Under the pieces are notes generated by a model. The model ran no database searches. It was not told the origin of the DNA and worked only from the letters and a program-made list of their open reading frames with translations. Of a stretch of DNA of 64,000 nucleotides, positions 33,996 through 40,639 are shown piece after piece (position 1 is the first letter of the stretch; each line of letters begins with the position of its first letter). A program made the translations under genes and the position numbers. Source of the stretch: a virus (taxonomy: Duplodnaviria > Caudoviricetes); the IMG/VR virus record IMGVR_UViG_3300005326_000046, positions 1 through 64,000 of that record. One strand, given 5' to 3'.

Positions 33996-34024
33996 TTGAC
34001 ATTCACCCTCACCTATGCTATTAT
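33996..34024 (+). promoter_or_regulatory. sigma70-type promoter
   Basis: TTGACA-17 bp-TATTAT. Confidence 0.75.
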
Positions 34025-34654: not shown

Positions 34655-35350
34655 ATGGCAGTAAAGACACATGGTTATCGGCTGCACGTGGAGTTCATTA
34701 CTCCCGTGCTTGGGACTCAGTCAACGCGTGAAGTAGCGACCGAGTTTATCGCCAAGAAGTCCGGCTTCGAGATCCCCCAGGATGAACAGGAAACACTCCC
34801 CGAAGCGCTGGAACGCGGAACCACCGTCTTTCACCGCAAAGACGACAAGCCGGTCTACTACGATTATCACATCCTCGGATTCCTGCGTGAAGCCGGATCT
34901 GTCCTCAATGGCAAGGTGACCGGTGGCGTCAAGAATCTCCGCAGTAAGGTTGAGAATAACGTCTTTGCGTTCCCCCGGCAGATTGAGCTACACGTGCCCG
35001 ATGGAGCGGACTACGAGCCTTACAACGAGCGTGCGCTTCGAGCCAAGACGGCGCGGGGACCGCGCGTTACCCTCGTGCGATCCGAGCAGTTGCCAGAAGG
35101 CACGTGGTTTGACGCCATGCTGGAAGTGATCGACGGCGAGATCACAGAGAACGTCCTGCGCGACTTGTTCGACTTCGGTTATTTGCGCGGCTTCGGTCAG
35201 TGGCGCACGGGTTGCTGGGGCCGGTTCGTGTACACGTTGACCAGCGACGAAGAGAAGCCAAAGGCCAAGGCAAAGAAGGTCGCGACGGATGATTCCGTCA
35301 CGACTATCTCGGGGATCCCCGTCATGCTGATGGAGGCACAACATGGATGA
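34655..35350 (+). CDS. Solitary Cas7-like RAMP protein (Vipr-like)
   Basis: YRLHVEFITPVLGT (RRM beta1); PVYYDYHILGFLREA; ERALRA; SEQLPEGTWFDAMLEV; Gly-rich loop GFGQWRTGCWGRF; no other cas genes in the window. Confidence 0.8.
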   Translation: MAVKTHGYRLHVEFITPVLGTQSTREVATEFIAKKSGFEIPQDEQETLPEALERGTTVFHRKDDKPVYYDYHILGFLREAGSVLNGKVTGGVKNLRSKVENNVFAFPRQIELHVPDGADYEPYNERALRAKTARGPRVTLVRSEQLPEGTWFDAMLEVIDGEITENVLRDLFDFGYLRGFGQWRTGCWGRFVYTLTSDEEKPKAKAKKVATDDSVTTISGIPVMLMEAQHG

Positions 35351-35600
35351 TGGTTCAGAATATGAATACGTTGATACGGTTCGAGTGCACTTTTATGTGA
35401 TTGATGACGAAGCGCGAGCATTGCGTAAGCTTGCCTATCTTGAATTGCGCACACCGCGCGACCAGGTGCGTTTCATGTTACGCCAGGAGCTTACGCGGCG
35501 CGGTTTGTTGCCGGTTGCGAAGGCCGCCGCGGATGACTCGACTACGACCAGCGCGGGCGTGCCCGTCATGGTGATGGAGATGAGCGATGCCGAAGTATGA
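35343..35600 (+). CDS. Ribbon-helix-helix-like DNA-binding protein
   Basis: VRVHFY strand, then DEARALRKLAYLE and PRDQVRFMLRQEL helices. Confidence 0.55.
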   Translation: MDDGSEYEYVDTVRVHFYVIDDEARALRKLAYLELRTPRDQVRFMLRQELTRRGLLPVAKAAADDSTTTSAGVPVMVMEMSDAEV

Positions 35601-36282
35601 CATTGGCAGCAAGGTGGCTTACAGGCACGAAGATGGCCGGCGCGTCGTCGGGCACGTGGTTGACTACTCGCCACATAGCGATCACTACACGATTCGCTTG
35701 CCAGAAGAACTGGTAACCGTCGACTCCGAGAACATCACTGCTGTGCCGAAGTACAACGTCGGCGACAAACTCAAGTACCGCAGTTCCGTAGGGTTCATAA
35801 TTCCATGCACCGTGATTGCTGTCCACGAGCATGGTAAATTCGGACGCAAGTATGAGGTTCGGTTGGAAGGAAACCGGTGGCAGAATATCCCCATGCATCT
35901 TTGCGAAGAAGACATCGTAGACACACCAAGTGAAAACCCAGTGCCGCCTGTGGGCTCACGCGTCTTCTATCATGACTTCTCACATGCCGAGAGCGCGTGG
36001 AGCGGCAGGCTTGGTACTGTTGTTGGTCTTGCGGTGGGTGGTGTTCATGTGCAATTTGACGGCGAGAAAGACACGTGGAACTTGGAAACGGCCAAGGTGC
36101 ACCTGGTTGACGACGCTTATGGATTGTTTGCGAACAACGACGCCCTCAAGTTAGCCAACAAGGAGATCGTTGTCCTCCGCGACGCGCTAAACTCCGCGAA
36201 CACTGAAGCAAACACGCTGCGCCGTTGTGTCGACAGAATTCATAGGCTTACCCATGAAGCACTGGGCCTAGATGATGACTAG
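35587..36282 (+). CDS. Three SH3/KOW-like repeats plus coiled coil
   Basis: YDIGSKV, YNVGDKL, PPVGSRV repeats; helical C-terminus. Confidence 0.7.
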   Translation: MPKYDIGSKVAYRHEDGRRVVGHVVDYSPHSDHYTIRLPEELVTVDSENITAVPKYNVGDKLKYRSSVGFIIPCTVIAVHEHGKFGRKYEVRLEGNRWQNIPMHLCEEDIVDTPSENPVPPVGSRVFYHDFSHAESAWSGRLGTVVGLAVGGVHVQFDGEKDTWNLETAKVHLVDDAYGLFANNDALKLANKEIVVLRDALNSANTEANTLRRCVDRIHRLTHEALGLDDD

Positions 36283-37254
36283 GCATTGGCAGAGATCCGT
36301 CTTGCGACGCGCTGGCATAGCATGGCACGGTAACGCAACGGCGCCGCGTGGCGTCGCTCGGCAGTGGTAAAGTCAGGCGTAGCACAGTATCAGCATAGTA
36401 CGGTCATGTGGAGCGGCGGCAAAGCGAAGTAAAGTCCCGCGGCGGCATGGTCTAGTCCAGTCGAGTCCCGCGCGGCAATGGCTTAGCGCAGCAGGGCGTT
36501 GGCACAGCGACGTGTCGCAGCGCGATGGCGTGGCCTAGTGCAGTCGTGCAGTGGCACAGCTTGGCGAAGTCTCGTTTGGCACAGCAATGGCGAGGTATTG
36601 CGCGATTCGGCAAAGGCGAAGCGGTGTCCTGCACGGCAACAGTCTAGCGTGGAACAGTCAGGTATTGCCGGGTGTTGCGAGGCGTTGGCGAGGCGAGGCT
36701 TTGTGAGGCGTTGGTCCTGCATAGTTGGGTGATGCATTGGCAGGGTTCGGTCAGGCACTGCGCTGCGCTGGTAGTGCTCGGCAGTGTTAGGCATTGGCAA
36801 AGCGTTGTAGGCCGCTGTCCTGTCTCGTTCTGCATGGCGATGGTCAGGTGAGGCGCTCTAACGTGCCGCGGGGGCACGGCGCTGTTTTGCGGCCCTATGT
36901 TCTGCAATGGCGAAGTTCAGCCTTGTGCCGCGAAGGCATAGCCTGGCACAGTTCAGCATGGTAACGGTCTTGTTTGGCACACTGATGTCTAGCAACGGCC
37001 AAGCACAGCAAGGTCCGGCAATGGCATAGCCCAGTATGGCAGTGCGACGGCAAAGTTCTGCTTGCGCCGCAATGGCGAGGCATTGCCAAGCACAGTTTTG
37101 TCCGGCAATGGCAAAGCGTGGTTACGTTTGGTAATGGCATGGTGCAGCAAAGTAACGCATCGGTAAGGCCAAGTGACGTTTGGCGATGGTGTGGCATAGC
37201 TGCCTGCGGCAAAGTAACAGTGAGGTAAAGCTGAGTCATGCAGTGCAACGGTAA
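36282..37254 (+). repeat. Non-coding NGY-NN pentamer array (candidate guide-RNA array)
   Basis: 36287-37254 parses exactly into 187 pentamers in 34 blocks, each block opened by one extra nucleotide; all but 8 pentamers begin NGY; no credible ORF. Confidence 0.9.
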
Positions 37255-37292: not shown

Positions 37293-37847
37293 ATGGCAAA
37301 ACGGTGGTTCCACTGGAAGAAGTTAGGGCGATACGTCGAGATCGACACAACCCGCACGTGCAAGAACTGCGGCGCGGTGCATCCATACCTCGGAGGCGAA
37401 TCGTACACGCTTCGTCAGTCTCTGGGCGCAAAGATCATCTGCCCAGTCTGCGACCACGAGTACGAGATGCGCACAAGCCAAGAGATTGTTCTGGGCCTTA
37501 TCGAGCACATCGGGCACGTTGAGGCGGAGCGCGACTACTGGAAGAACTTGTGGTACAACGGCGGATACAAGAACCGGCCAGCACCGCGAGATAGGCCATG
37601 GGACATCAAGGCCGTTGACGGCTCGCCAACCATCGTCTCAGGGCCGGCACTGTGTCCAAAGTGCGGCAAGCAGCAGGTTGAACTACACGCCGGTGTGCTG
37701 TATCCTGGCAATGACCTTCCGCACATGGAGATTCGTTGTCCAGACTGCGGCCCGCTTCAGGCCAACCCCTACGAGCCGTCCGAGGATCCAATCAACAAGG
37801 ATGCTCCACCGGTGAAGCCGTGGGCACCGCCGCAGGAGCAACTATGA
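37293..37847 (+). CDS. Hypothetical multi-CxxC zinc-ribbon protein
   Basis: CKNC, CPVC, CPKC, CPDC. Confidence 0.7.
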   Translation: MAKRWFHWKKLGRYVEIDTTRTCKNCGAVHPYLGGESYTLRQSLGAKIICPVCDHEYEMRTSQEIVLGLIEHIGHVEAERDYWKNLWYNGGYKNRPAPRDRPWDIKAVDGSPTIVSGPALCPKCGKQQVELHAGVLYPGNDLPHMEIRCPDCGPLQANPYEPSEDPINKDAPPVKPWAPPQEQL

Positions 37848-39628: not shown

Positions 39629-40639
39629 ATGGCAGACTTTCGCAGTGTCCAAACCAGGATGTGGCGCGAAGACGAATGGTTCATGGATTTACCCACAGAT
39701 GCGCGTCTGTTCTGGATCTATCTCTTCACGAATCCGAGCGCAAGCATCTGCGGCATGTACCGACTACCGCCCCGCACCATGTCATTCGAGAGTGGCCTAT
39801 CACATGAGCGCGTGTTGGAGTTGTTGGACCAGTTTACACGGGCGGGCAAGATCGCGTATGAGGATGGAGTGATTTGGGTAGTCCGTATGCGCGACAATCA
39901 ACTGGGCGACAAACTCAGTAAGACACAGCGTATAGGCATCATCAAAGACATGGCCAAGATTCCCCCGTCTCCGTTGAAGGATCACTATCTAGACCACTAT
40001 GGATACCCTATTGGTAGCCCATGCATGGCACCAGGTGAAGACGACGAAGGCCTAGATAGCCTATGCATAGGTCGCGCTACGTTACGTTACGATACTGTTA
40101 CAGATACGTTACGTCACGTGACGTCATCGGAGCCTATGCAACTTTGCAGTAGAACAGATGATGAAAACGACGATATCACAAATGACCATGATCGTTCCCT
40201 TGAAAACTCCGAAGGTGTCTCTCCCAAAAAAGAACCAGTGAAACGCAACGTAACGCCCATGAAACGCCATGAAACGGTAAAAACCGATCGTAAGAAGTCG
40301 ATTGACGCGGCCTCTGGGCTCTTCAACACGCGCGTGCACATGATCACAGGGGGATTACCGCGCGACGAGCTTGAAGAGTTAGCCGGCACTCTGTTCGACA
40401 TGGAGGTTCCAGGGTGGTTTGAGATGGCGATAGACGCGGCCGAAGCCGCGGGAGCACGCAACTGGGCCTACGTGCGCGCGTGTATCAAGAACGCCATTCG
40501 GGAAAAGCGCCCGCCAAGCGCGAAAGGCAAGGGGAATGGAGCCAATTTCAGAGGTGGTAACCGCCGCAATCCAAAACGCAACGACCCGACCCCGGAGGAT
40601 ATCGAAGAGTGGAACAACGCCCCAATCATCGAAGAGTGA
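39629..40639 (+). CDS. Phage replication initiator
   Basis: FRSVQTRMW.DEWF.DL..DARLFWIYLFTNP (winged-helix N-terminus); low-complexity linker; C-terminal NWAYVRACIKN (DnaD-like); precedes loader and helicase. Confidence 0.8.
   Translation: MADFRSVQTRMWREDEWFMDLPTDARLFWIYLFTNPSASICGMYRLPPRTMSFESGLSHERVLELLDQFTRAGKIAYEDGVIWVVRMRDNQLGDKLSKTQRIGIIKDMAKIPPSPLKDHYLDHYGYPIGSPCMAPGEDDEGLDSLCIGRATLRYDTVTDTLRHVTSSEPMQLCSRTDDENDDITNDHDRSLENSEGVSPKKEPVKRNVTPMKRHETVKTDRKKSIDAASGLFNTRVHMITGGLPRDELEELAGTLFDMEVPGWFEMAIDAAEAAGARNWAYVRACIKNAIREKRPPSAKGKGNGANFRGGNRRNPKRNDPTPEDIEEWNNAPIIEE

Follow-up and report, generated by a model that had tools for sequence, protein, structure and literature searches.

A staggered array of NGY-NN pentamers near a Cas7-like phage gene: a likely VIPR guide array punctuated by single-base register slips

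VIPR, a CRISPR-related, RNA-guided DNA silencer, was first described in 2026 (10.64898/2026.04.26.720920). Its effector, Vipr, is a stand-alone RAMP protein that polymerises on vrRNAs built of GGY-NN pentamers, with one protomer per repeat; the protein sequesters GGY, presents NN, and reads double-stranded DNA while skipping every third base (VIPR preprints). Characterised type II vrRNAs consist of 9-16 repeats and a pseudoknot tail of ~40 nt (VIPR preprints). In the structure of the phage SUSP1 system, D177 reads G1 together with H17, W178 stacks on G2, and R179 holds Y3; the DNA-bound filament has five subunits per turn, with ~25 nt of RNA and 15 bp of DNA, and the smallest assembly comprises 5 subunits (10.64898/2026.04.26.720927). 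The SUSP1 tracts are transcribed and co-purify with Vipr.

Variation on this scheme has also been recorded. The available text of the first preprint lists the non-canonical repeats NNNGG, YNNNG, and NNNNG, and it names "staggered vrRNA arrays," said to be "1-nt overlapping," only in the legend of fig. S18, with no experimental test (10.64898/2026.04.26.720920). According to the same text, RNA sequencing confirmed only ribozyme-interspersed and single-vrRNA arrays, not staggered ones, and a 26-nt super-period or a junction motif is not mentioned in it. Another preprint recovers VIPR arrays with motifs such as WGT/NN.

Here, we analyzed a tract of degenerate pentamers in a 64,000-nt stretch of phage DNA (the window), positions 1 to 64,000 of IMG/VR record IMGVR_UViG_3300005326_000046; the phage genome is complete, at 80,003 bp with terminal repeats. 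When the array sequence was sought among sequencing runs, only two groundwater DNA runs, and no RNA run, matched; the sequence is present in both, and groundwater may be its source. The tract begins 0.9 kb downstream of a vipr gene on the same strand, the two being separated by two open reading frames (ORFs) (Table 1). A near-consensus promoter upstream of vipr is, judging from its sequence, a candidate for driving an operon that would run through vipr into the array. Pfam and/or PHROG scans of 10 flanking ORFs detected no Cas family.

Table 1. Features of the vipr locus and its array, with positions counted from the first letter of the window
Feature	Position	Strand	Basis or remarks
Candidate promoter, near-consensus sigma-70 type	33996..34024	+	TTGACA, 17-nt spacer, TATTAT, with TG; 11/12 matches in consensus scan
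vipr, stand-alone Cas7-like RAMP protein, 231 aa (predicted)	34655..35350	+	Fold prediction and Foldseek
85-aa ORF, possible accessory gene	35343..35600	+	C-terminus repeats the Vipr tail
231-aa ORF of unassigned function, between vipr and array	35587..36282	+	Without significant family match
vrRNA array (very probable)	36282..37254	+	188 NGY-NN pentamers in 34 blocks split by single extra bases; HMM parse, spectrum, statistics
Typical 26-nt block	36313..36338	+	Extra T, then GGC-AT, AGC-AT, GGC-AC, GGT-AA, CGC-AA
GC-rich hairpin followed by T-run	36862..36893	+	Terminator-like scan match; most degenerate part of the array; contains the only extra-G junction

The tract has a sharp Fourier peak at a period of 5.16-5.18, with a power of 25.6 against a background below 2. 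In 500-nt windows over the whole 80-kb genome, the peak was confined to the tract, where its power was 14-21, compared to a maximum of 3.8 in the 781 windows outside. Period-3 power within the tract was only 0.2-0.6 versus a genome median of 3.9, indicating that the tract is non-coding. Autocorrelation was 0.381 at lag 5 and reached its maximum, 0.454, at lag 26, the two lags at which the sequence-only reading had proposed to look; there were echoes at lags 31 (0.419), 36, 52 (0.413), and 57. Since the values at lags 24 (0.213) and 25 (0.251) were both at background, the lag-26 maximum means a shift of exactly +1 in the 5-nt register roughly every 26 nt. Tandem Repeats Finder called neither a 5-nt nor a 26-nt array in the tract, because the units are too divergent.

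We parsed the tract with a hidden Markov model (HMM) that had five states for the pentamer, one for the insert, and one for background; emissions were learned by EM, and junction positions were not supplied. Besides the pentamers and the 34 single-base insertions, the parse placed one 1-nt deletion near 37058. Across the 188 plus-strand units, G2 is conserved in 96% and Y3 in 98%, and exactly 8 triplets break NGY. Rfam had no match within the array. The array RNA is predicted to be less stably folded than all 20 dinucleotide shuffles (z = +2.46), and such low structure fits a protein-coated single strand; the 3' flank of the array has no significant or tail-like structure (z = 0.47). The terminator-like hairpin inside the array could split it into two transcripts, but it folds no better than its shuffles (z = +1.13), and its significance is doubtful.

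The insertions delimit 33 complete blocks, of which 20 have 5 units, six have 6, four have 7, two have 9, and one has 4; under a geometric null, 20 of 33 blocks with 5 units would arise with a P of about 3e-14. The extra base is T in 20 cases, C in 11, A in 2, and G in 1. GGY is the first triplet in 31 of the 34 blocks, whereas G1 is found in just 50 of 153 internal units (Fisher 2e-10), and N4 of the last unit is always a purine (34/34 versus 96/153 elsewhere; Fisher 2e-6), with AA as the last NN in 14 blocks. The last triplet is NGC in 30/34 blocks; in the first unit, A predominates at N4, and in 30/34 blocks the second unit opens with a purine (N1). The conserved junction is ~11 nt, roughly G-C-R-a-Y-G-G-Y-r-n-R (GC-RA-Y-GGY-rn-R), and is wider than described earlier.

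These counts agree closely with what the sequence-only reading had claimed from the letters. Its division of the tract into 34 blocks with a mode of 26 nt was recovered by the unsupervised HMM, and a recount returned its 20 blocks of exactly five pentamers (the others having 4-9), its 31 pyrimidine extra bases (T and C together), its 31 blocks opening with GGY amid free internal triplets, and its 14 final AA pairs. The purine that opens the last NN, claimed for 33 of 33 blocks, came out at 34 of 34, and the eight irregular triplets are exactly those it had listed. Its argument against satellite slippage, that no two blocks look identical, also stands: a blastn-short comparison among the blocks found no two significantly alike and none duplicated.

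The putative effector has no match in Pfam, PHROG, or NCBIfam. An AlphaFold2 model built with a 42-sequence alignment reached a pLDDT of 84 (the model from a single sequence reached only 31), and its top PDB matches in Foldseek were type VII Cas7 and the type III protein Csm3 (E 1.5e-8, probability 1.0). By predicted fold and G-loop alignment, the protein would be a stand-alone, Cas7-like RAMP with the RRM core, G-loop, and thumb of a Vipr, encoded outside any CRISPR locus. Its family is large and mostly viral, with 1277 representatives at 50% identity. A tblastn search of the phage collection with P0001 did not match SUSP1, and hhalign of the 42-sequence profile against SUSP1 Vipr gave a weak match (probability 56%, E 1e-4) in which only the 50-residue C-terminal G-loop region was aligned. 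There, GQWRxGxxGRF aligns to GDWRPRFGRF of SUSP1, placing Q182, W183, and R184 opposite D177, W178, and R179; in the alignment, W183 never varies, and conservation at Q182 and R184 is 90% or higher. A change of the G1-reading residue, with the presumed readers of G2 and Y3 kept, fits an NGY repeat.

Vipr also has an extra, Lys-rich C-terminal tail of about 33 aa, which is missing from the ~198-aa relatives. The tail (window 35231-35347) recurs at the C-terminus of the 85-aa ORF (35511-35579), with 16/26 residues identical (BLASTP E 4e-8); the shared stretch is ~25 aa long, with the core DDSxTTxxGxPVMxME, and it may be a docking peptide. The N-terminus of the 85-aa ORF looks ribbon-helix-helix-like by eye. 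A vap accessory gene was considered for the two ORFs that separate vipr from the array, with no family matches found. The 85-aa ORF has no match in Pfam, PHROG, or NCBIfam and no homologue among more than 100 related loci; the 231-aa ORF likewise has no significant match to these families and is absent from related loci, and its structure-atlas matches are weak only (SH3/Tudor/KOW-like, TM below 0.5).

Punctuation of this kind extends well beyond one phage. With the same HMM, this grammar was recovered at every one of ten loci taken from metagenomes and gut-phage records, where protein identity was 31-63%. A Vipr-profile search yielded 80 IMG/VR loci, and in 77 of them there is an array, defined as at least 15 NGY-NN units on the same strand; these arrays have 19-317 units, and most of them begin no more than a few tens of nucleotides past the vipr stop. 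In all, the punctuated grammar recurs in about 90 related loci. From these, 78 non-redundant related arrays with 1320 complete blocks were pooled. Blocks of 5 (332), 6 (377), 7 (186), and 4 (128) units are the common sizes, within a range of 4-13 and with a mode of 6. GGN opens 84% of the 1320 blocks, compared to G1 in 29% of internal units, and the last NN is AA in 37%. As a control, the four SUSP1 vrRNA tracts were run through the same HMM; register was held for 12-15 units up to the tail, with zero internal slips. We conclude that punctuation is a property of a large Vipr clade, not just of one phage, and that the junction is a selected boundary signal, not slippage noise.

The extra base is homogeneous within an array and differs between arrays (related loci L032-L111): it is C in 17/19 junctions of L096, A in 38/46 of L074, T or C in 37/40 of L071, and G in 15/25 of L046. 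This suggests that the base is either read by something locus-specific or copied as blocks are added. In relatives whose vipr genes align at 64-74% nucleotide identity, similarity ends at the vipr stop codon, and no block is common to different arrays. The only other contigs with this exact Vipr (L008 and L009) are 100% identical over the locus, and the next relatives, at most 63% identical in protein sequence, have no blocks in common with it. Array content is replaced rapidly while the junction grammar stays uniform per array, in a manner reminiscent of repeat-spacer behaviour. In related phages this array type grows much larger, reaching 309-317 pentamers and over 50 junctions at 3124-4753 of L080 and 3124-4717 of L081, so the ~1-kb size seen here is unexceptional. 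Features specific to our locus are its strict 5-unit (26-nt) mode, its pyrimidine junction base, the two unrelated ORFs between vipr and the array, and the tail shared by Vipr and the 85-aa ORF.

Among described systems, the closest are VIPR loci with staggered arrays and YNNNG-type repeats, and the array is most likely of this staggered type, as far as the legend text of fig. S18, on which the match is based, allows a comparison. Both comprise a phage gene for a stand-alone Vipr (RAMP) and a long, tail-less pentamer tract with fixed G-Y and variable letters, in which adjoining units are offset by one base, so that each unit's end signals where its successor starts; here, the contiguous tail-less units are offset by 34 slips of +1. 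The blocks are very short, however, with a mode of 5 units versus 9-16 in characterised vrRNAs, and, going by that legend text, a definable ~11-nt junction motif and two unrelated ORFs between vipr and the array set the locus apart.

The type II system of phage SUSP1 (Vipr YP_009199429.1, vap1, four vrRNAs) shares the pentamer code, for which one protomer per repeat is expected here too, the conserved W-R residues of the G-loop, and a phage-borne, co-oriented locus. A VIPR array consists of adjacent, co-oriented pentamers with fixed GGY, or a related consensus, and variable NN, and both the 188 units here and the arrays at 77 of the 80 related loci have this form. The SUSP1 vrRNAs are nevertheless each separate, with 12-15 in-register GGY-NN units and a ~40-nt pseudoknot tail, whereas the array here has no tails, NGY instead of GGY, +1 slips, and Q in place of D177, and similarity to the SUSP1 protein is limited to the G-loop. 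A SUSP1-like type II layout of 9-16 in-register repeats plus a structured 3' tail was thus not found, the blocks being tail-less and 4-9 units long. Class 1 CRISPR effectors, with their Cas7 and Csm3 filaments, are the best structural matches of the modelled Vipr, and repeat-spacer arrays resemble the tract in alternating a semi-conserved element with variable content. The period here is 5 nt, not 6, though; CRISPR repeats, Cas6, Cas5, Cas1, and hairpins are absent; and the "repeat," only ~11 nt long, itself obeys the pentamer code. The element is therefore a large and unusually regular example of a recently described kind, not a new kind of system, and it is one of the cleanest staggered arrays, with 20/33 blocks of exactly 26 nt.

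We are highly confident in identifying the tract as a phage-borne VIPR guide-RNA (vrRNA) array. The grammar, its conservation in relatives, and its co-orientation with vipr are direct observations, and the neighbouring protein is predicted to be Cas7-like. That the slips bound separately acting guide modules is favoured with noticeably less assurance, and the full statement, a VIPR vrRNA array with slip-bounded guide modules, we judge likely overall. The array would be transcribed on the plus strand together with vipr, and in this Vipr clade the first G of GGY would not be needed internally, giving an NGY-NN repeat. Instead of 3' tails, the RNA would carry punctuation: once five or more units have passed, a single extra base puts the 5-nt register out of step, and a full GGY then opens the following block. 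Each block is presumably a single short guide module. Spacing of 6 nt at a junction, a +1 slip, could interrupt the register from protomer to protomer and yield separate mini-filaments, or the RNA could be cut there. By analogy to the CRISPR repeat, the semi-conserved junction (GC-RA-Y-GGC-AN-R) might act as a minimal handle, and targets would be read by the exposed NN. The floor of ~5 units and the 26-nt mode are consistent with at least one full turn of a SUSP1-type filament per module.

This scheme bears on three suggestions of the sequence-only reading. The comparison of blocks with related phages that it called for reveals the same block structure in the relatives. Its view of the junctions as functional sites is borne out to the extent that they form a family-wide, selected boundary signal (84% versus 29% GGN), and processing or filament restart at these sites is what we infer beyond that. 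Between dozens of short guides and a few multi-block guides, which it had left side by side, many short guides are favoured because the NN pairs that flank junctions are semi-conserved, and multi-block guides are disfavoured on the same ground.

The variable letters behave as guides might. Internal NN pairs are used at frequencies that follow the first two codon positions in the genes of the phage itself (r = 0.54 sense, 0.52 antisense), compared to r of 0.10 or less, in some cases negative, for other phases and 0.13 for genome dinucleotides. Guides that skip the wobble base and target coding DNA, in sense or antisense, should leave this pattern, although the evidence is modest, with 16 categories compared.

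Searches for targets returned nothing above chance. On the masked 80-kb genome, windows of 10, 12, and 15 units with junction gaps of -1 to +2 matched no better than shuffled controls, and exact scans of IMG/VR with two 9-unit blocks (18 specified bases each) gave 0 hits. A 10-unit block of gut phage L012, of which 8 internal units served as the query, produced 10 hits, at chance level, none of which extended into the flanking units. When all 338 guides of at least 7 units in 79 arrays were tested for cross-targeting, 770 kb of related loci yielded 0 hits versus 2 in shuffled controls. A host search via terminase relatives led only to MAG contigs of discordant phyla. These searches have low power, and their blank results do not count against a guide function. 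With only 10 nt specified by a 5-unit block, ~10 chance matches are expected in a ~5-Mb host genome, and an independent guide of 10 specified bases would thus have poor specificity.

That problem is one motive for considering guides that span several blocks, in which the filament would continue through the junctions, the extra base would be a bulge tolerated or needed about once per helical turn, and several blocks would read one long target. The modal 5-unit block does equal the five subunits per turn of the DNA-bound SUSP1 filament, and ten specified bases seem too few for a lone guide. A geometric once-per-turn rule, however, disallows the variation in block length (4-9 units here, and more widely in relatives), and with semi-conserved NN beside each junction, the targets would need a matching periodic motif. 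Junction-spanning windows of 10-15 units did no better than shuffles on the phage's own genome, a weak objection, since self-targets are unexpected anyway. We consider multi-block guides distinctly improbable. Specificity would also be solved if N4-N5-N1' paired contiguously with the target, no base being skipped, so that a 5-unit block would specify about 15 nt; this reading is compatible with short guide modules. Internal N1 is nearly as variable as N4 and N5, the residue that would read G1 is Q and not D177, and the YNNNG and NNNNG types in the preprint's repeat list (10.64898/2026.04.26.720920) would accommodate such a code. On the other side, stop codons are not depleted from N4-N5-N1' triplets (2 observed versus 2.4 expected with permuted N1), and C is under-represented at N1, suggesting structural constraint over free coding. 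A three-letter code is unlikely on this balance. More speculatively, the junction could be a miniature "repeat" read by the Vipr of this clade or by a partner, the blocks one-turn mini-filaments of at least 5 protomers, and N1 a third guide letter, with ~34 guides of ~15 nt acting in parallel. The locus-specific choice of extra base across relatives (almost always A, almost always C, or Y as here) points in this direction, yet the combined proposal seems to us rather unlikely; if true, the pentamer code would have absorbed a repeat-spacer logic, and the junction base would co-evolve with the protein.

Two further readings would deny the array a guide function. Neutral, microsatellite-like slippage, or an RNA that soaks up protein with uninformative NN letters, would account for a short-period repeat and for the failure to find targets. 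The units are, however, too different from one another for Tandem Repeats Finder, no block is duplicated, the slips are all +1 and more evenly spaced than chance allows, and NN usage tracks codon positions 1-2; we regard this explanation as very improbable. An element acting as DNA, phasing a DNA-binding protein or bending the double helix, is suggested by arithmetic only: two mean periods make up one B-DNA turn (2 x 5.17 = 10.35 bp), and 26 bp is 2.5 turns. This is scarcely credible for a motif that is strictly strand-asymmetric and always co-oriented with a gene for a Cas7-like RNA-binding protein, whose mean period shifts with block size among relatives, and whose homologous tracts in SUSP1 are transcribed and co-purify with Vipr.

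This locus and the 78 related arrays (1320 blocks) give an explicit junction rule: the slip is always +1, the restart is with GGN, the last NN is purine- and A-rich, the block floor is ~5 units, and the extra base is locus-specific. The rule is directly testable and would help to annotate guide boundaries in such arrays. It also raises the question of how 10-14 specified bases per guide achieve specificity. Two ways out, which are not mutually exclusive, are cooperative or multi-block reading, disfavoured because block length is variable and the junction NN are semi-conserved, and use of N1 as a third guide letter, to which the stop-codon test lent no support.

Several other features of the window were observed. 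Directly downstream of the array, on the plus strand, an ORF at 37293-37847 encodes a double zinc-ribbon protein with a sub-threshold match to the Lar-like (restriction alleviation) family PF14354 (27.3 bits versus a cut-off of 28.6). At 2192-2303, also on the plus strand, there is an Rfam match to EGFOA RNA (RF02955) that covers the full-length model and scores 48.5 bits versus a gathering score of 37.7. Short tandem repeats occur at 40078-40124 and 40239-40276, consisting of TACGT x9 (a period of 11 also fits) and a 10-nt unit x3.7, respectively. They sit within a DnaD-like replisome-organiser gene (39629-40639), have no relation to the VIPR pentamers, and might serve as iterons of an origin.
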